Shown here: piece by piece, positions 46,885 to 60,808 of the stretch | How the letters are laid out: every line of letters starts with the position of its first letter | Position numbering within the stretch: the stretch's first letter is position 1 | Virus record (IMG/VR): IMGVR_UViG_3300044632_001278 | Length of the DNA: 64,000 nt | Direction: 5' to 3' (one strand) | Source of the DNA: a virus | The notes under the pieces: generated by a model | What the model was told of the DNA's origin: nothing | Database searches by the model: none | What the model saw: the letters and a program-made list of their open reading frames with translations, nothing else | Position numbers and translations under genes: made by a program

Positions 46885-46908
46885 TCTAGGATAAAGAAAA
46901 TTAAACAG

Positions 46909-46938
46909 AACCCCGCTTAGAAATAAGCGGGGTTTTTT
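46909..46938 (+). terminator. Rho-independent terminator after the sheath gene
   Basis: AACCCCGCTTA-GAAA-TAAGCGGGGTT followed by a T run. Confidence 0.92.
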
Positions 46939-46961
46939 GTTTGATCTGTATATTTATATTT

Positions 46962-47252
46962 ATGATACTATTAACACGAATCGTTGAGGATTTAACTAAC
47001 CCACAAGTTAAAAACGCCGTAGATCCATCTCTTTTAAAGTTAATTGACAAGGTAATCGATGACACAAATGTTTTGGTAGTTAATAACTTAAAAATGGTAA
47101 AGGATATTTTATCAAAAGAACCAATTGATAAGGCTAGATTAGACGTTGCACTAAGCAATTATAAACGTTATTTTAATAGAGACAATGGCGGCACACCTGA
47201 AGTCATTCGTGGTATGACAATGCAAAATAAACTAGACGAGTTAGCAAAATGA
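46962..47252 (+). CDS. Small protein, putative head-packaged (probable start MILLTRIVE)
   Basis: ATG at 46962 lies 3 nt after TATTTATA; the track start at 46941 is a TTG. Confidence 0.65.
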   Translation: MILLTRIVEDLTNPQVKNAVDPSLLKLIDKVIDDTNVLVVNNLKMVKDILSKEPIDKARLDVALSNYKRYFNRDNGGTPEVIRGMTMQNKLDELAK

Positions 47253-47770
47253 TTAGTTTAACTGACATTTTAAATGAAGTTTTATCTGAGTCTGATCCAA
47301 AAGTTGGAACTGGTAAAAAGCCAAAAGGATCTGATAGACGATTATATACCGATGAAAATCCGAAGGATACGGTTAGAGTAAAATTTAAAACATCCCAAGA
47401 CATTAAAGATACACTAGCTAGTAGTGGTTTTAAATCAAAAAGTCACAAAAGACAATCTCAAATTATAAATCTTATACATCAGAGAGTTAGAGCAGCTTAT
47501 CAAAATGCTAAAGATCCAAATGTTAAAAGCAGATTGAAAAGTGCTTTAGACTATGCTATACAACGTAAAGAGGCCTCAAAAGCAAAAACAATAAAATTAA
47601 ATAAAGAAACATCCAATCCAGAATCTGGTAAATCATCTCCATATGGTTCTGGATATGGAGTGGTTGAAAATAATATAGAAGAGAAATGTTGGAAGGGATA
47701 TACGCAAAAAGGTATGAAAACATTGTTTGGTAAAAAATATCCCAACTGCGTTAAAAAAACAAACAAATAA
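47249..47770 (+). CDS. Basic protein, putative head-packaged, with a C-terminal CWKGY...PNCV module
   Basis: N-terminus MISLTDILNE; LYTDENPKDT core. Confidence 0.7.
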   Translation: MISLTDILNEVLSESDPKVGTGKKPKGSDRRLYTDENPKDTVRVKFKTSQDIKDTLASSGFKSKSHKRQSQIINLIHQRVRAAYQNAKDPNVKSRLKSALDYAIQRKEASKAKTIKLNKETSNPESGKSSPYGSGYGVVENNIEEKCWKGYTQKGMKTLFGKKYPNCVKKTNK

Positions 47771-47789
47771 TTTTATACCAATTATCAAA

Positions 47790-48563
47790 ATGATTAGTTT
47801 AAACGATTTATTATTAGAAGCCAAACTTCCTCAAAGCGAGCAAGATATGGATCTTTATGCTCGTAAATACAAGAAGACTATAGATTATTTACGTACCAAG
47901 AACAAAGTACTATTGTTAACTACCAGTAATAGATGGAGTGGTCACAAAGACGATATTGCTAAGAGTACACAATTAGCAATTAAAATGCAAGAATTATTAG
48001 GTAAAGAAAAAGTATCATTGATAGATACTACCAAATTAAATATAGTTCCGTGTGAGGGCAATGTATCGTCAAAATGGGGAAATCATTGTGGTACAAAAGA
48101 TTCATCTTTAAAAGATAAAGAAAAAAACCCAACAGGAGAACATCGTTGTTGGGCTAGTATTAATAATAAGAACGATGAATTATGGAAAGTAAGTAAAGAG
48201 CTATTTGAAAGTGATACCGTTTTATTTTTTGCTAGTGTGAGATGGGGTCAAGCCAATGGTTTTTATCAAAAATTGATCGAAAGATTGACTTGGATTGAAA
48301 ACAGACATTCTACGTTGGGAGAAAGTAATATTGTTAAAAATATTGATTCAGGATTCATTGCAACTGGACAAAATTGGAATGGCAAAGATGTTACACAAAC
48401 ACAAAAAGAAGTACTTCAGTTTTTTGGATTCAAAACACCAGACCAATTATTTTGGAATTGGCAATTTACTAATAATAGTTTAGACGAAACTAAGAGTTCT
48501 TACAAAAAAGCAATTACTGTATTTGATAAAACATTTTTAAAACCATATGATAAGACTAAATAA
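47790..48563 (+). CDS. Flavodoxin-fold flavoprotein (NADPH-dependent FMN reductase / iron-sulfur flavoprotein-like); probable start 47790
   Basis: KVLLLTTSNR...ST, LNIVPCEG, RCW...DEL, SDTVLFFASVRWG...KLIERL. Confidence 0.75.
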   Translation: MISLNDLLLEAKLPQSEQDMDLYARKYKKTIDYLRTKNKVLLLTTSNRWSGHKDDIAKSTQLAIKMQELLGKEKVSLIDTTKLNIVPCEGNVSSKWGNHCGTKDSSLKDKEKNPTGEHRCWASINNKNDELWKVSKELFESDTVLFFASVRWGQANGFYQKLIERLTWIENRHSTLGESNIVKNIDSGFIATGQNWNGKDVTQTQKEVLQFFGFKTPDQLFWNWQFTNNSLDETKSSYKKAITVFDKTFLKPYDKTK

Positions 48564-49581
48564 CATTTTAAGTGAGGTAATACAAGAAGGCGGCGCAGGT
48601 GGACATATGGCACATCCATTTGATTTTGTAAATACTGGCGCTAAATTGGTAGGTGTATTTGCGAAAGCAGTAAAGTCTCTGAAGCAAGGCGCCGGTAGTG
48701 TAAAGATTGACGGTGTTAATGCAAGTATCCGTATGATAAACAGCCAATTTGTAATGGATCGTGGATCAGCAAAACCACTTGATATTAAGGGCATGAGACC
48801 CGAAGATTTGCCAAATAGATTTGAACCAGGTCATGGATTTATTAATATTGGAACTAAAGTAATCAATATTTTCGATGAAGCGATTCCAAGTACCAAATCC
48901 GAATTAAAAAAGTTGGGCTTGTTGAACAATCCAAATATATTGTTTAATATTGAATATGTAGAAGGTACAACAAACGTAGTTGGTTATGGTGATATTGGAA
49001 ACTTTTTAGCAATTCATGGCTTAAAAGAGATCAAACCAAAGACATTTGGTAAGGATGGTAGTGTAAAATCCCGTGTTGCTGTTGAAATACCGTATGATAA
49101 AGCGGCAATGCAGTCCTACATCAATAAATTAAATAAGGTTGCAATGAAGTATGGATTCAAAGTACTAGGCAGCGTTGGTACATCATTTAAATCGGATCCA
49201 AATTTGGCCAAAGTATTGAGAGAACCAGTAACATTATATCCTACAGAAGTTGCTGAAACCAAGTCATTAAAAGACTGGTTAAAAAATGTAAAAATCGATC
49301 TTCCACTTATCACCCGTGAACAATTTATTAATGCTTCAAACAGCAAAAATATTACGCAAGATTTTGCCGGTCAAGACGTTCAAAAGATTATAAATGATAC
49401 CATTGTTTATTTAACCACTATCAAATTAGGAGATGAAGTATTAAAGAATGCTACTAGTGAGATTGGTGACTTAGATAAACATGAAGGAATCGTGGTTAGA
49501 GATCCAAATATTTATAACAATCCTTTCAAAATTACAGGAAGTTTTATTATAAAAGGTTTGGAAAGTAAGTTTAAGAAATAA
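48547..49581 (+). CDS. RNA/DNA-ligase-like nucleotidyltransferase-fold protein
   Basis: Motif I KIDG, III FNIEYV, IV HEGIVVR, V FKI, in the correct order. Confidence 0.55.
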   Translation: MIRLNNILSEVIQEGGAGGHMAHPFDFVNTGAKLVGVFAKAVKSLKQGAGSVKIDGVNASIRMINSQFVMDRGSAKPLDIKGMRPEDLPNRFEPGHGFINIGTKVINIFDEAIPSTKSELKKLGLLNNPNILFNIEYVEGTTNVVGYGDIGNFLAIHGLKEIKPKTFGKDGSVKSRVAVEIPYDKAAMQSYINKLNKVAMKYGFKVLGSVGTSFKSDPNLAKVLREPVTLYPTEVAETKSLKDWLKNVKIDLPLITREQFINASNSKNITQDFAGQDVQKIINDTIVYLTTIKLGDEVLKNATSEIGDLDKHEGIVVRDPNIYNNPFKITGSFIIKGLESKFKK

Positions 49582-53772: not shown

Positions 53773-54651
53773 ATGCACAAGAAAGCAAAACATTCGAAAT
53801 TCAAGAATGCTGGAATATTGTTTGAACTACTCACTAGACAAATAACAGCCGACATTCTAGCGGGGAGAGATGAATCATTTACCAAAAATCTGATGTTCAA
53901 GTATTTTCACGAAAGCAAAGAACTAGGAAAAGAAGTGCAACTTTACAATTTCATCCTACAACAAAAAAGCAAAGATGCTTCTTCCGCTGAACGTCTTTTG
54001 AATGTTGTTTTGCAAACACGTTCCAAACTAGATGAACGCGAATTGAACAAGCAAAAGTACAACATAATTAAAGAAATAAAAGAGAAGTATAATATAGACG
54101 AATTTTTGAAAAATAAAATTCCAAATTATAAGTTATACGCCTCTATATACAAATTATTTGAAGATCAAGATAAAAGTGAAGTCAAGTTTGATGTATCTGA
54201 ATTGTTAGAATCAAGAGAATATATTGTTGAGAGCTTAACAAAAGAAAAGAAGTCAGAACAAGAAATGATGGATGTTTATGGAAATCAAAGTGCTGAAGTT
54301 AGATTGTTGGCCTATAAATTCTTGATTGAAAACTTCAATACCAAATACAACAATCTTTTGCCAGATCAAAAGAAACTTCTAAAAGAATATATTACTAATG
54401 TTTCCAACTCCAGTAAATTTACAAAATACGTCAACGAAGAGTACAAGAGAATAAGTGGAGTATTAAAAGATCAAGTGAAGAATGTTACCTCTGAAGTGGT
54501 TAAAATTAAAATAAATGAAGTTATTAGTCAGTTTTCAACAAAATCTTGTGTTGGCGTAATTAAAGAAAATCAATTGACTTCATTGTTAAATGTATACGAA
54601 TTGATAGAAGAAATTAAAAAGATTGATGTCAAAAATGAAGCAAAATCTTAA
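53773..54651 (+). CDS. Hypothetical head-assembly-region protein
   Basis: Long helical ORF between portal and protease; TATTTATA upstream. Confidence 0.75.
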   Translation: MHKKAKHSKFKNAGILFELLTRQITADILAGRDESFTKNLMFKYFHESKELGKEVQLYNFILQQKSKDASSAERLLNVVLQTRSKLDERELNKQKYNIIKEIKEKYNIDEFLKNKIPNYKLYASIYKLFEDQDKSEVKFDVSELLESREYIVESLTKEKKSEQEMMDVYGNQSAEVRLLAYKFLIENFNTKYNNLLPDQKKLLKEYITNVSNSSKFTKYVNEEYKRISGVLKDQVKNVTSEVVKIKINEVISQFSTKSCVGVIKENQLTSLLNVYELIEEIKKIDVKNEAKS

Positions 54652-55634: not shown

Positions 55635-56237
55635 ATGAAACAAGTATTGATAGACATATTACCATTTGAATTTAAAAAGACATCTTTAAATGAATCTCTT
55701 AAAGATGGAAAACTATACGTAACCGGCGTATTACAACGTGCGGATGCAAAGAATCAAAATGGAAGAGTGTACCCAGAAGATGTACTAAAGCGTGAAGCTG
55801 AAAAGTATATGCAAAACTTCGTAAAACAACGTCGTGCTATGGGTGAGTTGGATCATCCAGAAAGCAGCGTGGTTAACTTAAAGAACGTTAGTCACAACAT
55901 TGTTGATATGGGTTGGGAAGACAAAGATTTGGTTGGAACAGTTGAAATACTGCCCACACCAAGTGGTAATATTCTTAGAGATTTATTGCAATCTGGAATT
56001 TTATTAGGTATTAGCAGCAGAGGATTAGGCAGTGTTAAAAAAGATATGAGAGAAGGTGCCGACATTGTACAAGACGATTTTGATTTGATCGCATTTGACT
56101 TTGTAAGCAATCCTAGTACACAAGGTGCCTTTATGTATCCTCAAGGCAAAATCAATGAAAGTGTAGAACAAAGAACAATTGTCAACCCATACGGTAATGT
56201 AGAAAGAATTATTCACAACATTCTATCAGAATTATAA
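55635..56237 (+). CDS. Prohead core protease (gp21-like); probable start 55635
   Basis: NQNGRVYP, GELDHP, VSH, TPSG, GISSRGLGS, FDFVSNPS. Confidence 0.95.
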   Translation: MKQVLIDILPFEFKKTSLNESLKDGKLYVTGVLQRADAKNQNGRVYPEDVLKREAEKYMQNFVKQRRAMGELDHPESSVVNLKNVSHNIVDMGWEDKDLVGTVEILPTPSGNILRDLLQSGILLGISSRGLGSVKKDMREGADIVQDDFDLIAFDFVSNPSTQGAFMYPQGKINESVEQRTIVNPYGNVERIIHNILSEL

Positions 56238-56249
56238 TATTTATAAAGT

Positions 56250-56681
56250 ATGAAATTAAAACATTTACTAGAAAATTCCACTGAAGTAGCTTATAGTCCA
56301 CTTACCAAAGAAGAAAAGTCAAAAATGGTTGGTGCTATTAGATCCTATAATGAATATCGCAAGGGATTAAAAGCCGATTGTGTATATGAAACTGCACAAA
56401 AAATTATGGAGGCTGTTAATCTAGCAGAACGCTACGCAATTAAAGAATGTGGCGACTGGATGCAAGCCAAAATGGTTGAACGTGATATGAAAGAAATCAA
56501 AAGAGACGCTGCCAAAATGTATGAAGAAGCCAACAAAATGAAAGAAATTGAAAAACAACTTGAAATGTTGTATGAACAAGTTGGTATGAGATTGGAACGT
56601 TATTTTGAAATTGCCGACCAAGTACACACTGATCCAAAACCACAAGAAGGCACTATTAACTCATCGGTATCGAATCAATAA
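56250..56681 (+). CDS. Hypothetical coiled-coil protein, putative head-associated
   Basis: MKLKHLLE N-terminus; TATTTATA 4 nt upstream. Confidence 0.7.
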   Translation: MKLKHLLENSTEVAYSPLTKEEKSKMVGAIRSYNEYRKGLKADCVYETAQKIMEAVNLAERYAIKECGDWMQAKMVERDMKEIKRDAAKMYEEANKMKEIEKQLEMLYEQVGMRLERYFEIADQVHTDPKPQEGTINSSVSNQ

Positions 56682-57114
56682 ATTCCAACATTTTATCGAA
56701 CGATTCAAAAACGTATCTTCTATTTGCTTCTATCACATAACCTTCGTCTGTTTTATAGACGAAGGTTTTTCTTTTCTCGTTGACCATATCTAAAGATGGA
56801 ACTTCTATTTCAGAAAACATTCTGTATTCATCATCTATACGAAAATTCATTTCACCCAATATATCAATTTCCGTAAAATCCCATCCGTTTGGATTATCTA
56901 TATCTTCTAACTTAAACATTTTTTCTTCTTCAAAATTATCATTGTTTATAAAGTTAATTAATTTTGGAGACTTATAATTGTTGTAGCTATTATTCATAGA
57001 ACGCACATCTGGGTTGGAATATGGAGTTTCGTCCCCAGTTCTTTTTATAAACTTATAATTGTCTTTTGTGGAATTCATATGTTTAGCTAGATTTGGATTG
57101 AAATTATAGGCCAT
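56656..57114 (-). CDS. Hypothetical protein (152 aa)
   Basis: ORF coupled to 57104..57697. Confidence 0.65.
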   Translation of the reverse strand: MAYNFNPNLAKHMNSTKDNYKFIKRTGDETPYSNPDVRSMNNSYNNYKSPKLINFINNDNFEEEKMFKLEDIDNPNGWDFTEIDILGEMNFRIDDEYRMFSEIEVPSLDMVNEKRKTFVYKTDEGYVIEANRRYVFESFDKMLEFIDSIPMS

Positions 57115-57697
57115 AAGAGTTAATTCTATCTATAAAGTCAGATAGGGTTTTTGTTTGTTCAGAATCTTTATTCTTATCCAAAGCAGTACTTAACATACTG
57201 AATATTTCTTTGTCTGGTTTATCAGGATAAGATCTTTGAATAAAACAAGCATATACAATTAAATTTTCATTTTTTTGATCTATGAGCTTTTTAAACACAT
57301 ATTTCTTGGTACTACCATTACTAAATATTTCAGTTTCTATTTTTGTATTTTCTGGTGGGTTAGGAATAAAATTTGTTTTTCCAAATCCACTAAATCCCGC
57401 TTGTTTACTTTGAAAAGTTAACATTTCTTTTTTAGTAAACGCAATACCTTCATTTTCTTTTAGCACTTGGTTAAATGATTTGCCTTTAATGATATCAAAA
57501 TCACTTAATGAATATTCTGCTTCATTAAGACTTTTCAATATTTCTTTCAATTTAACAAAGTGTTTTACACTACTTGGTTTGATGGTACGTGCCATCTTAC
57601 GAACTTGTGGTGAAACTTCTTTTGATTTGATTCCACCTTTTTGTAGTGCTCTTACCAATCTAAATAGTCTGGCTTGTTTTTCGCTTTTTGCAGGCAT
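57104..57697 (-). CDS. Hypothetical protein with an MPAKSEKQ N-terminal module and internal KLKEILKSLNE motif
   Basis: ORF; TATTTATT 5 nt upstream on the minus strand. Confidence 0.7.
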   Translation of the reverse strand: MPAKSEKQARLFRLVRALQKGGIKSKEVSPQVRKMARTIKPSSVKHFVKLKEILKSLNEAEYSLSDFDIIKGKSFNQVLKENEGIAFTKKEMLTFQSKQAGFSGFGKTNFIPNPPENTKIETEIFSNGSTKKYVFKKLIDQKNENLIVYACFIQRSYPDKPDKEIFSMLSTALDKNKDSEQTKTLSDFIDRINSYGL

Positions 57698-57852: not shown

Positions 57853-58929
57853 ATGAGCGATCTATTAAAAGAAAGCATTGCGGATGCAAAGGCTGTACGT
57901 GAAACAGCATTGGCAAATGCAAAGACCTTCCTCGAAGAAAGTTTTGCAAACAGTATGAAAGAAATGTTTGCAGATAAACTCAAGGAAGAAATGGCAGAAG
58001 AAACCGAAGCACCAGAAGGTGAAGAAGGCAAGATTGAAGAAAAACTTGCATCTTCTAACATTGGTAAGGATGACAGCAATGTTGCTACAAAACAACACCC
58101 AACCAAACCATCACCAGCTTCAAATAAAAACACAACTCCAGCAGGTAAGCAAGAATTCGACGTAAAGCTTGAAGAAGAAGCTGCCGTTGAAGAAGGTGCT
58201 GAAGTAACTAGTGAAGAACTAGACGAAATTCTAGCAGAACTAGAAGGTGAAGTAGTATCCGAAGGAGATTCCGACGATGCCGGTGAATCTGATGATTCAA
58301 TGGAAGAAGAAATTAATCTAGACGAACTTCTAGCAGAACTAGAAGGCGAAGATCCAGCAGCTGCACCAGCACCTGCTCCAGCTCCAGAAGCTCCTGTTGC
58401 TCCAGCCGCTCCAGCTGCTGAAGTACCAGCTCCAGCCCCAGCTCAAGTTCCATCTCCTTCAGAAGGTGAATACTCAGAAGAAGTATCCGCTGAAGAAATG
58501 GCAGAAGCTCTAGTAGCTATCAACGAAGAAAACGAACAACTAAAGTCTCAATTGAGCGAACACATCAAGACTGTAAAGTATTTGAAGAGTGTTCTATCTG
58601 AAACAAATCTATTGAATGCTAAGTTGCTCTACACCAACAAATTGTTCAAAGGTAAAGCTCTTACCGAAGATCAAAAGTTGAAGATCATCAACACTTTCGA
58701 CTTGACCAAGAATATTCGTGAAGTCAAGTTGGCATATACAGTTTTAGCCGAATCACTTAATTCCGGTGCATCAGTTGTCAAGAAAAAGACCAATACAACT
58801 GCTCAAACTATCACCGAAGGTTTGGCAAGCAAACCAGTATCCAGTACAAAGCCTGATTCTACCATTGTAGAACCTCAAGCTGAAGTAATGGCTTCAAGAT
58901 TCCAAAAACTCGCAGGAATCAAGAAGTAA
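57853..58929 (+). CDS. Prohead scaffold/core protein (gp22-like); probable start 57853
   Basis: Very acidic coiled coil directly upstream of the major capsid gene; GAAAGG upstream; C-terminal RFQKLAGI. Confidence 0.85.
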   Translation: MSDLLKESIADAKAVRETALANAKTFLEESFANSMKEMFADKLKEEMAEETEAPEGEEGKIEEKLASSNIGKDDSNVATKQHPTKPSPASNKNTTPAGKQEFDVKLEEEAAVEEGAEVTSEELDEILAELEGEVVSEGDSDDAGESDDSMEEEINLDELLAELEGEDPAAAPAPAPAPEAPVAPAAPAAEVPAPAPAQVPSPSEGEYSEEVSAEEMAEALVAINEENEQLKSQLSEHIKTVKYLKSVLSETNLLNAKLLYTNKLFKGKALTEDQKLKIINTFDLTKNIREVKLAYTVLAESLNSGASVVKKKTNTTAQTITEGLASKPVSSTKPDSTIVEPQAEVMASRFQKLAGIKK

Positions 58930-58981: not shown

Positions 58982-60808
58982 ATGAGTATGGATGTAAAAA
59001 GTCTATTGACAGGAAATATGAATCCACAAGCCAAATTGATGGCTGAAACACGTGGACTACAATCCAAGTGGGAAAAGACAGGCCTCCTAGAAGGTTGCCA
59101 AGGTGTTGAAAAAGCACATATGTCAATCCTATTGGAAAACCAAGCAAAACAATTGCTTGACGAAGCAACCACCACCGGTACCTCTACCAGTTCAGAACAA
59201 TGGGCTGGTGTAGCTCTACCATTGGTACGTCGTGTATTCGCTGAAATCGCCGCTAAGGAATTCGTCAGCGTACAACCAATGAATCTACCATCTGGTCTAA
59301 TTTTCTATCTAGACTTCAAGTATGGTACAACCGCTCCTGGTAGTGATTTGCGTAACTTGAACAACGGTAGTTCCGTAACTACCCGTGCAGGTAAGCAATT
59401 GAACGACAGTTTGTTTGGTGGTACAGGTAAGAAGTTGGGTTCAACTGATGACGCAGTACGTGGTCTATACGGTCAAGGTGCTTTTGCTTATTCAGTTCGT
59501 CCAGTAAGTAGCTCTGCTATTACCCTAGCTAAGAGTGCAACTGCAACCGCAACTGGTAACACCATCCAAACCGCTTCTTGGAACGACGTTCAATTTGCTG
59601 CTGAATTAAGCGCATCTGTCGTAGCTAAGAAGTTGTTCAAGGTTATCTTGAACCACGACGACAACACCACTGGTGTTGCTGGTCAAGGATATATGTACAA
59701 CGTTGACTTGAACGCAGTACGTTCATTCAACTTGATTTCAGGTTCAGTTGCACCAACTTCTCTAAGAAGCAATGGTTTGGTATTGAACACCTATTCAAAA
59801 GCAATTAACACTGGTAGTTTGAGCAATCCATTCTATCAATCCGTATATATCGTATCCGCTTCTAATAGCGCATTCGGTGGTGCAGCAAGCAACGTTAAGT
59901 TGATCTATAGTCTACAACCTACCGATAACCTACGTGGTGACTTCGAAGCTGGTAAGACCCCAGGTGAAGGTTCCGGTACCGCTGGTAACGTTCCTACACA
60001 AAGCATCGATACTGATATCAGTATCCCAGAAGTAAACTTGGTACTAAACAGCGAACCAATCGTTGCTAAGACCCGTAAGTTGAAAGCAGTCTGGACCCCA
60101 GAATTGGCTCAAGACTTGAACGCATATCACTCCATCGACGCAGAAGCAGAACTTACTGCTCTATTGAGTGAATATGTATCTATGGAAATCGATCTTGAAA
60201 TCCTAGACATGTTGAACGAAGCCGTTCAAGGCATAACAACCGAAGCTTGGTCCGCCCAAATCGGTGTTGAATTCAGCAAGGGATTGAATGCAACTACTGG
60301 TGAAGCAATCTTCACACGTAATGCAAACAGTTCACCAAACCGTACTGCTTACGTAAAGAGCACTTGGTTCCAAACTCTTGGAAACAAGATCCAAAAGGTA
60401 TCTAACACAATCCAAAAATTGACCCTACGTGGTGGTGCAAACTTCTTGGTCGTAAGTCCAGACGTTGCAACTATCCTAGAATCAATCCCAGGATATGTAG
60501 TAAACACTGATGGTGATCAAGCTAAGTTCGCAATGGGCGTAAGCCGCGTTGGTAGCTTTGCTTCTCGCTTCCAAGTTTACAAGAACCCATACATGACCGA
60601 TAACGTAGTATTGGTTGGTTTCCGTGGAAACAACTTCCTAGAAACCGGTGCTGTATATGCTCCATATATCCCACTAATCCAAACTCCATTGGTCTATGAT
60701 CCAGTGAACTTCACTCCACGTAGAGGCGTAATGACCCGCTACGCTAAGAAGGTAGTGCGCCCAGAGTTCTATGGAAAAGTTATTATCGGCGATCTCGATA
60801 CCGTATAA
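58982..60808 (+). CDS. Major capsid protein (gp23-like)
   Basis: LLENQ, LPLVRR, VQPMNLPSGLIFYL, AKTRKLKAVWTPELAQDLNAYH, YAPYIPL, FTPRRGVMTRYA. Confidence 0.98.
   Translation: MSMDVKSLLTGNMNPQAKLMAETRGLQSKWEKTGLLEGCQGVEKAHMSILLENQAKQLLDEATTTGTSTSSEQWAGVALPLVRRVFAEIAAKEFVSVQPMNLPSGLIFYLDFKYGTTAPGSDLRNLNNGSSVTTRAGKQLNDSLFGGTGKKLGSTDDAVRGLYGQGAFAYSVRPVSSSAITLAKSATATATGNTIQTASWNDVQFAAELSASVVAKKLFKVILNHDDNTTGVAGQGYMYNVDLNAVRSFNLISGSVAPTSLRSNGLVLNTYSKAINTGSLSNPFYQSVYIVSASNSAFGGAASNVKLIYSLQPTDNLRGDFEAGKTPGEGSGTAGNVPTQSIDTDISIPEVNLVLNSEPIVAKTRKLKAVWTPELAQDLNAYHSIDAEAELTALLSEYVSMEIDLEILDMLNEAVQGITTEAWSAQIGVEFSKGLNATTGEAIFTRNANSSPNRTAYVKSTWFQTLGNKIQKVSNTIQKLTLRGGANFLVVSPDVATILESIPGYVVNTDGDQAKFAMGVSRVGSFASRFQVYKNPYMTDNVVLVGFRGNNFLETGAVYAPYIPLIQTPLVYDPVNFTPRRGVMTRYAKKVVRPEFYGKVIIGDLDTV

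Follow-up and report, generated by a model that had tools for sequence, protein, structure and literature searches.

Four consecutive genes of an uncultured virus, IMG/VR record IMGVR_UViG_3300044632_001278, encode proteins with unrelated bodies that start with the same peptide of nine or ten residues. Judging from the sequence pattern, we consider it likely that this peptide is a capsid-targeting propeptide of the bacteriophage T4 type, which would direct each protein into the assembling head and then be cut off. The genes occupy positions 46,962 to 49,581 of a stretch of 64,000 nucleotides (the window), read from the reverse strand of the 79-kb, 34% GC record. On this reading the head probably holds, beside the DNA, a flavodoxin-like protein, an RNA-ligase-like enzyme and two small basic proteins. 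Our confidence that active enzymes are delivered to the cell, a step for which we argue by analogy, is lower than that in targeting and cleavage. An earlier note on this DNA had read the shared start as a T4-type head-loading tag, and the protease gene, the match to the T4 key positions, selection on the peptide, its placement outside the fold, the turnover of the cassette and the enrichment of cleavage sites all agree with that reading.

A cassette of four tagged genes

The cassette and the signals in front of it are listed here; a slash marks the predicted cut (aa, amino acids; pI, isoelectric point).

46907 to 46936, + strand: intrinsic-terminator-like hairpin ending the tail sheath transcript, just 5' of the cassette (13-pair stem with 6 GC pairs, then a T run)
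46951 to 46958, + strand: TATTTATA element, 3 nt 5' of the first ATG; may serve the whole cassette as a late promoter or start signal
46962 to 47252, + strand: tagged gene 1, 96 aa; 9-residue tag MILLTRIVE/D; predicted mature form 9.8 kDa, pI 8.2; no known family
47249 to 47770, + strand: tagged gene 2, 173 aa; tag MISLTDILNE/V and second site VLSE/S; predicted mature pI 10.0; no known family
47790 to 48563, + strand: tagged gene 3, 257 aa; tag MISLNDLLLE/A; predicted flavodoxin-like (FMN reductase / NQO-type) fold
48547 to 49581, + strand: tagged gene 4, 344 aa; tag MIRLNNILSE/V and second site VIQE/GG; predicted RNA-ligase-type nucleotidyltransferase fold with KxDG

The reading frames and the sequence bear out what had been described at this place: four consecutive plus-strand genes with a common N-terminal pattern, one TATTTATA ahead of them, and an identical DNA start in two of them (genes 2 and 3, which share the 13 bases ATGATTAGTTTAA). 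Genes 1 and 2 overlap, as do genes 3 and 4, and the gap between genes 2 and 3 is 19 nt. Because the genes overlap or nearly abut and a single TATTTATA follows the terminator hairpin, the cassette looks like one operon. The predicted mature forms of all four proteins are basic (pI 8.2-10.0); that of protein 2 has a predicted size of 18 kDa, and the two enzyme-like cargo proteins measure 28 and 37 kDa. Searches of Pfam, PHROGs, NCBIfam and PDB sequences returned nothing usable for any of the four, and among 50,697 records of cultured phages tblastn found no match to protein 3 or protein 4.

The C-terminus of protein 2 (window 47678-47770) carries a CWKGY...PNCV motif common to cyanophage proteins. 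Together with the YTDENP region of protein 2, this motif is found again in gp123 of Synechococcus phage Bellamy (L083:1298-3154), a multi-domain protein of 618 aa (DUF192 and DUF6321) without an N-terminal tag, whose gene lies directly upstream of terL, the same genomic slot.

The tag is a real pattern, kept as a peptide

The consensus of the four N-termini is M-I-x-L-x-x-[IL]-[LV]-x(0,1)-E. Loosened to ^M[ILVK].[LIF]..[ILV][ILV].{0,1}E, it matches 5 of the 66 genes of the 79-kb contig, where 0.014 matches are expected from composition, and none of 287 internal Met positions. The fifth match, MIKLNDLIE/N (L082:12405-13013, minus strand), lies outside the window and played no part in deriving the pattern. 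When residues 2-11 of all genes were compared all against all in an unsupervised manner, the four top pairs were all tag with tag. Given the counts against expectation, the internal-Met control, the fifth match and this ranking, we regard the pattern as real and not a product of chance. The bodies behind it are as unrelated as had been claimed: with the first 14 residues removed, no pair gives a BLAST match below E 0.3.

Other tag-bearing genes of the contig are the one at 56250, taken up below, and two on L082, outside the window and just upstream of neck genes. One encodes 439 aa beginning MKFIDLLTE/V, with a mycobacteriophage GP88 domain (L082:10823-12142, minus strand); the other, the fifth match, encodes 202 aa and is rich in L/I-x-E. 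Searches with the GP88-like protein matched mainly mycobacteriophage genes of unknown role and were uninformative on virion location.

We collected distinct N-termini of orthologues from IMG/VR relatives (35 for protein 4, 17 for protein 3 and 18 for protein 1). Positions 2, 4, 7, 8 and the Glu are invariant in these tags, except for one L4F in the ligase-like set and swaps among I, L and V at positions 7-8, and positions 3, 5 and 6 vary, together with position 9 in tags of ten residues. The invariant residues are written with two to five synonymous codons (L4 as CTA, CTG, TTA, TTG or CTT; I7 as ATT, ATA or ATC). Residues kept through synonymous codons point to selection on the peptide, which argues against a module that acts purely at the DNA or RNA level.

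In the AlphaFold2 (AF2) models the tag has low confidence (predicted local distance difference test, pLDDT, below 50 for residues 1-13 of protein 4; low for about the first 20 residues of protein 3), and a short helix is predicted over residues 4-11 of protein 3. As modelled, the tag lies outside the folded domain in both proteins. Two known kinds of leader were considered and rejected: a Sec or lipoprotein signal, for which the tag is too short and polar, and, for protein 4, a double-glycine leader of the bacteriocin type, whose hydrophobic positions are out of register and whose GG is missing from the other three tags.

Protease, scaffold and capsid protein of the same phage

The source phage is a distant, uncultured freshwater T4-like phage. 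Its T4-type structural module lies within the window and comprises a portal (product matching PF07230, 8.6e-70), a gp21-type protease, an acidic scaffold and the major capsid protein (MCP). The nearest cultured relatives, Flavobacterium phage immuto and Microcystis phage Mel-JY01, have MCPs about 49% identical to this one, and T4 gp23 is 32% identical to it across 250 aligned residues (BLASTP). Close relatives are plentiful in metagenomes; the database holds 692 relatives of protein 4, and 159 IMG/VR contig stretches encode one. Completeness ratings of just 29-48% for related records of 97-134 kb imply a genome well above 200 kb.

53773 to 54651, + strand: 292-aa candidate prohead core protein, encoded behind the portal gene, with 14 L/I-x-E sites (4.8 per 100 aa); TATTTATA 16 nt 5'
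55635 to 56237, + strand: prohead maturation protease of the T4 gp21 family (Peptidase_S77, PF03420, 1.1e-29; phrog_207, 2.8e-53)
56250 to 56681, + strand: tagged 143-aa acidic protein, core or internal protein candidate, between protease and scaffold; MKLKHLLE/N; 5 L/I-x-E sites
57853 to 58929, + strand: acidic scaffold (gp22-like); 17 L/I-x-E sites (4.75 per 100 aa)
59153 to 59164, + strand: LLDE/A in the MCP (residues 58-61), predicted propeptide end, placed by its position and by BLASTP against T4 gp23
489 to 2228, − strand: 579-aa gene starting MIALLE/E, weak candidate by the loose rule only; TATTTATA 5 nt upstream; no family found

The gp21 homologue announced at 55635 is thus confirmed by its family match. 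The scaffold and the 292-aa protein hold about 4.8 L/I-x-E sites per 100 aa, roughly five-fold the contig mean of 0.99, and the core proteins of T4 are likewise dense in such sites. The density inside proteins 2 to 4 is near the contig average. In T4 gp23 cleavage occurs at FLTE/A, and the MCP segment aligned just after this site lies six residues beyond LLDE/A.

Further tags had been proposed at four other places. That of the 56250 gene holds up: its relatives start MIKLKHLVE/N, and TATTTATA lies 4 nt upstream. MIALLE/E (2228, minus strand), FLNE/A (487) and the internal KLKEILKSLNE/A (57104-57697, minus strand) fit the loose L/I-x-E rule only.

An RNA-ligase-type fold and a flavodoxin-like fold

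The structural models uphold the labels of ligase-like enzyme and flavoprotein that proteins 4 and 3 had been given. The model of protein 4 (pLDDT 91.6) has, as predicted, the adenylyltransferase-domain fold of ATP-dependent RNA and DNA ligases. Its best structural match in PDB is T4 Rnl1 (Z 9.5, root-mean-square deviation 4.1, 186 aa aligned), and all 50 PDB entries listed for it are RNA or DNA ligases; the Foldseek E-values are weak, 6e-3 at best. K53, D55, G56, E313, G314 and K328 are invariant among 28 diverse homologues. By reading the sequence, without superposition of active sites, we assign K53-x-D55-G56 as putative motif I with the nucleophilic lysine, E313-G314 as motif IV and K328 as motif V. 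Because no curated ligase family model in Pfam, NCBIfam or PHROG and no PDB sequence matches, we call the protein ligase-like and place it in no described family. A BLASTP comparison with immuto's 'NadR' protein (907 aa) showed no similarity.

When 1.84 billion representative proteins were scanned in full, the ligase-like family came to 356 clusters at 50% identity, for which there is no Pfam model. The start of the domain is conserved as GGAGGH-x-x-HP-F-D. Among the best 150 of the 356 clusters this Gly-rich start was recognisable in 119, which fall into four kinds: 53 carry a short N-terminal leader ending in [LIVMF]-x-E immediately before it, 46 are longer fusion proteins with [LIVMF]-x-E at a junction inside them, 16 begin exactly at the Gly-rich start, and 4 differ. 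Where there is upstream sequence, [LIVMF]-x-E directly precedes the domain in 99 of 103 members. From these counts, and from the members that begin at this point, it follows that the predicted cut coincides with a natural domain boundary. The fusion partners are an HxGH cytidylyltransferase/NMNAT-like domain, DUF192 and GNAT, and also proteins named SET-domain-containing in BFVD; these combinations suggest that the domains may serve one pathway.

Protein 3 is modelled (pLDDT 84.7) with a flavodoxin-like fold of the FMN-reductase / quinone-reductase kind. Foldseek against PDB retrieves the FMN-bound flavodoxin-like protein 2oys and quinone/FMN reductases (E 3.7e-7, probability 1.00, TM about 0.5). 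The predicted fold begins near residue 39, and the tag and a helix therefore precede the usual first strand. JGI names the protein 'multimeric flavodoxin WrbA', and PF03358 is found in 15-89% of the members of its neighbour clusters in the Atlas; protein 3 itself has no Pfam match at E 0.01. An invariant T-S-N-R after strand 1 of the family appears to resemble a phosphate loop. Leaders of the same style persist in the family down to about 65% identity. The family also has invariant Cys88, Cys100, His118 and Cys120 in an inter-strand insert, possibly a site for a metal or a cluster that ordinary FMN reductases lack.

Turnover of the cassette among relatives

We compared 46 related contigs that contain the ligase-like gene as well as the end of the sheath gene. 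Their slot holds varying sets of tagged genes around a nearly constant pair, the flavodoxin-like and the ligase-like gene. Gene 1 is found in most of the 46, not all, and its N-terminal region is replaced in L020 and L023; gene 2 is found in a minority, and L077 and L080 carry it as a fusion with gene 1 or gene 3. In some fusions of relatives a copy of the tag is kept internally (L080). A tagged J-domain protein (PF00226, 2e-9) is added in three of the contigs, and a fourth, L034, encodes a variant in which position 10 is Lys and the next site is LLNE. The J-domain protein, of 219-224 aa with an HPD motif, lies between the flavodoxin-like and ligase-like genes (L021:9313-9987, L038, L045, L034). 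Untagged inserts in the slot resemble homing endonucleases, and since they occur at the same place, position alone does not confer a tag.

One insert was set aside as cargo. The 284-aa open reading frame of L075 is an HNH-like homing-endonuclease insertion that begins with 20 codons captured from the start of the ligase-like gene; it has a weak ROS/MucR zinc-finger Pfam match (L075:9163-11053). The ligase-like gene of L075 has had its own N-terminus swapped for a different tag-like leader, and the Glu before GGAGGH is changed to Cys. The arrangement looks like a homing endonuclease that supplies a substitute 5' end to its target gene.

A strict DNA version of the tag pattern gives three coding-strand matches in each of five relatives of 97-134 kb, against 0-1 in the control. 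Beyond the cassette, the matches fall on a Mom-like protein (PF25680, 1e-24), a helix-turn-helix (HTH) protein and a 156-aa protein about 55-60 kb away; one further match was spurious, with a stop codon inside. The Mom-like protein (L088:1501-2250, relative G001; L100) starts MIKLKELILE with TATTTATA 4 nt upstream, and may be a head-loaded DNA-modifying enzyme.

Leaders of this style reach the cultured relatives. Just upstream of terL, immuto has a run of genes whose products have leaders ending in [LIV]-x-E, for example MKKLIRIVE/A, and its NT5C nucleotidase has a leader of about 20 residues, with the Pfam match beginning at residue 24. Mel-JY01 carries MGKLINILLSE/L on a 639-aa fusion of cytidylyltransferase and ligase-like domains, also upstream of terL.

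Comparison with T4 and other head-loading systems

Mullaney and Black reportedly described in 1996 the capsid-targeting sequence (CTS) of the T4 internal proteins IPI, IPII and IPIII and its removal by gp21. In the T4 genome (NC_000866), ipII and ipIII both start MKTYQEFIAE/A, gp24 starts MAKINELLRE/S, and gp23 is cut at FLTE/A. The first ten residues of IPIII suffice for loading into the T4 head, residues 4 and 7 being the main targeting determinants and 8 and 10 governing processing, and gp21 cleaves after L/I-x-E (PMC9026906). The tags described here are hydrophobic at 4, 7 and 8 and have Glu at 10, or at 9 in the two nine-residue versions. As far as sequences can be compared, the tag and the T4 CTS share the same design: a short N-terminal peptide ending in L/I-x-E, an S77 protease, and unrelated, mostly basic bodies (PMC9026906, PMC3012670). 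The gp24 propeptide MAKINELLRE/S is nearly superimposable on MISLNDLLLE/A of protein 3. The systems differ in the peptide, M-I-x-L-x-x-[IL]-[LV]-x-E here and MKTYQEFIAE in T4, and in the cargo, which here is predicted to include enzyme-like proteins of 28 and 37 kDa.

Like the cassette, the ip loci of T-even phages are a hyperplastic slot in which the contents vary among close relatives while the tag stays constant, and their chimeras join at the tag (PMC3012670, PMC9026906). The slot here, in contrast, lies between tail sheath and small-terminase-like genes, and nothing homologous to restriction inhibitors of the IPI type was found there. An enzyme that is packed in the head, trimmed by gp21 and ejected has a precedent in T4 Alt, an ADP-ribosyltransferase; Alt belongs to another enzyme class and is also trimmed C-terminally. 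The DarB protein of phage P1 is a large enzyme. The Dar antirestriction proteins of P1 are likewise loaded into the head and delivered with the DNA (PMC9024508), in an unrelated phage and by a hierarchical loading order, not by a short cleaved tag.

In phiKZ, 201phi2-1 and SPN3US many head proteins are substrates of a diverged gp21-type protease that cuts after Glu (PMC5694885, PMC10052503, PMC7411985), and redundant propeptide sites are frequent, as in two of the tags here. Their propeptides, however, are long and mutually dissimilar, no short portable tag has been defined, and the gene order is not T4-like. Among cyanomyoviruses, NMNAT/cytidylyltransferase-like proteins have been detected by mass spectrometry in the virions of S-SCSM1, S-CBWM1, S-SZBM1 and S-CREM2 (PMC9602691, PMC10665884). 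Relatives have a domain annotated alike in fusion with the ligase-like domain, and the Mel-JY01 fusion is tagged; the two papers describe no tag. Two tblastn searches linking these virion proteins to the ligase-like family matched only the CWxGY...PNCV motif of about 40 aa and the Mel-JY01 fusion; because homology to proteins of the window could not be shown, the link is only indirect. A literature search found no paper describing such tagged cargo in this lineage, and one on immuto, Mel-JY01 and RM378 returned unrelated papers only.

The mechanism is thus already known from the T4 CTS, the T-even ip loci and Alt, and our analysis extends it without defining another kind of system. The novelty lies in a clear example from an abundant, uncultured and distant lineage, with enzyme-like cargo. 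If the interpretation is right, the T4 head-loading tag would be a general device and not a peculiarity of T-even phages, and abundant uncultured T4-like phages of fresh and marine waters would deliver pre-made enzymes at infection. The rule M-I-x-L-x-x-[IL]-[LV]-x-E would then allow virion cargo to be predicted straight from metagenomes. Two widespread families without annotation, the RNA-ligase-type nucleotidyltransferases and the viral flavodoxin-like proteins, would be nominated as factors of takeover or counter-defence in the first minutes of infection. In immuto and Mel-JY01 there are cultured phages in which the idea can be examined.

Proposed mechanism and alternative explanations

We suggest the following course of events, inferring packaging, cleavage, ejection and enzymatic roles from T4 and building on the tag pattern, the presence of a protease gene, the modelled folds and the cassette turnover described above. 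The cassette proteins would be made late, from one transcript. During prohead assembly the tag, as a short amphipathic N-terminal helix with hydrophobic residues at 2, 4, 7 and 8, would bind the scaffolding core, and the gp21-family serine protease (S77) would then cleave behind the Glu that closes the terminal [LI]-x-E; proteins 2 and 4 offer a back-up site four residues further along. Once mature, the basic proteins would remain in the head with the DNA and probably be ejected into the cell with it. A portable tag of this kind would let relatives exchange cargo genes in the slot between sheath and terminase genes, and the same tag would mark genes elsewhere in related genomes. As speculation, the ligase-like enzyme might, by analogy with T4 Rnl1, immediately repair RNA cut by host defence nucleases.

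Several observations weigh against reading the peptide as a cleaved head-targeting tag. The pattern was defined after the data had been seen. Its terminal motif is short and common: the loose L/I-x-E rule fits 12 of the 66 N-termini where about 3 are expected, and we dropped the idea of counting all such matches as tags. LLxE before GGAGGH is also found at internal junctions of fusions that have no N-terminal tag, and the site could therefore be part of the domain or a linker and not a cleavage site. Cys replaces the Glu before GGAGGH in three ligase-like representatives and in L075, and two orthologues of protein 2 have Lys at position 10. Finally, the tagged Mom-like and HTH proteins belong to kinds that normally function inside the cell.

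A bolder version of the proposal is possible, but we would not call it probable. Here the tag would mark a large, exchangeable kit of ready-made enzymes that the widespread group of aquatic T4-like phages to which this one belongs injects with its DNA. The kit would include an RNA-ligase-type repair enzyme (resealing, for example, tRNAs cut by host anticodon nucleases before phage genes are expressed), along with a flavoprotein, a Mom-like modifier of DNA and a J-domain co-chaperone that would take over host Hsp70; the multi-domain versions of relatives, linked by LLxE, would be polyproteins split by the head protease.

Of the alternatives, the one that fits best, while still unlikely, accepts targeting to the prohead and cleavage and denies delivery. 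The proteins would be core- or scaffold-like, condense DNA or act on packaged DNA, and after infection be degraded, expelled or inert. Arguing for this case, the mature proteins are as basic (pI 8.2-10) as the DNA-bound internal proteins of T4, the tagged proteins of 143 and 202 aa are rich in L/I-x-E like degradable core proteins, and the tagged Mom-like enzyme of relatives could work on DNA inside the head. Counter to this, a ligase-type enzyme needs ATP, a flavodoxin-like protein needs flavin or electron donors, and a J-domain needs host Hsp70, none of which a filled capsid offers. The site density inside proteins 2 to 4 is near average, and in T4 the CTS-loaded proteins and fusions do reach the cell (PMC9026906).

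Alternatively, the shared helix could be a signal that has nothing to do with the capsid, serving co-assembly of the cassette proteins, localisation to a membrane or compartment, or recognition by a chaperone, with the Glu left uncleaved. We consider this quite improbable. It would accommodate the predicted short amphipathic helix and the LLxE at internal junctions of untagged fusions, and co-transcription together with the fusion of homologous domains in other phages does suggest functional coupling. It leaves unexplained, however, an invariant Glu at a fixed distance from Met1, the match to T4 positions 4, 7, 8 and 10, the enrichment of sites in the scaffold and the site in the MCP propeptide, the family members that start exactly after the Glu, and the tagged genes in other genome regions; for a membrane anchor, moreover, the tag is too short and polar.

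A module of DNA or RNA, in which a shared 5' end serves efficient translation start and anchors recombination during gene shuffling while the peptide has no function, would suit the common 13-base start of genes 2 and 3, the chimeras of relatives that join at or near the tag (L075, L077, L080) and the AT-rich region, but we give it hardly any credence, since key residues are kept via many synonymous codons while adjacent codons change residue, the peptide pattern and not the DNA is conserved across families, and phages at about 49% MCP identity show this peptide pattern too.

The TATTTATA element elsewhere in the window

Beyond the cassette, where a T4-type tag remains the reading we prefer, the TATTTATA element shows a pattern of its own. 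It lies 3-5 nt 5' of the ATG in seven genes (window 6289, 11908, 14513, 29491, 46951 and 56238 on the plus strand, 2234 on the minus strand), and 16 and 33 nt 5' of two further genes of the window. Its total in the window is near chance (19 against 14 expected), but its close placement before ATGs is not. If TATTTATA is a late promoter, the transcripts would be leaderless or almost leaderless.

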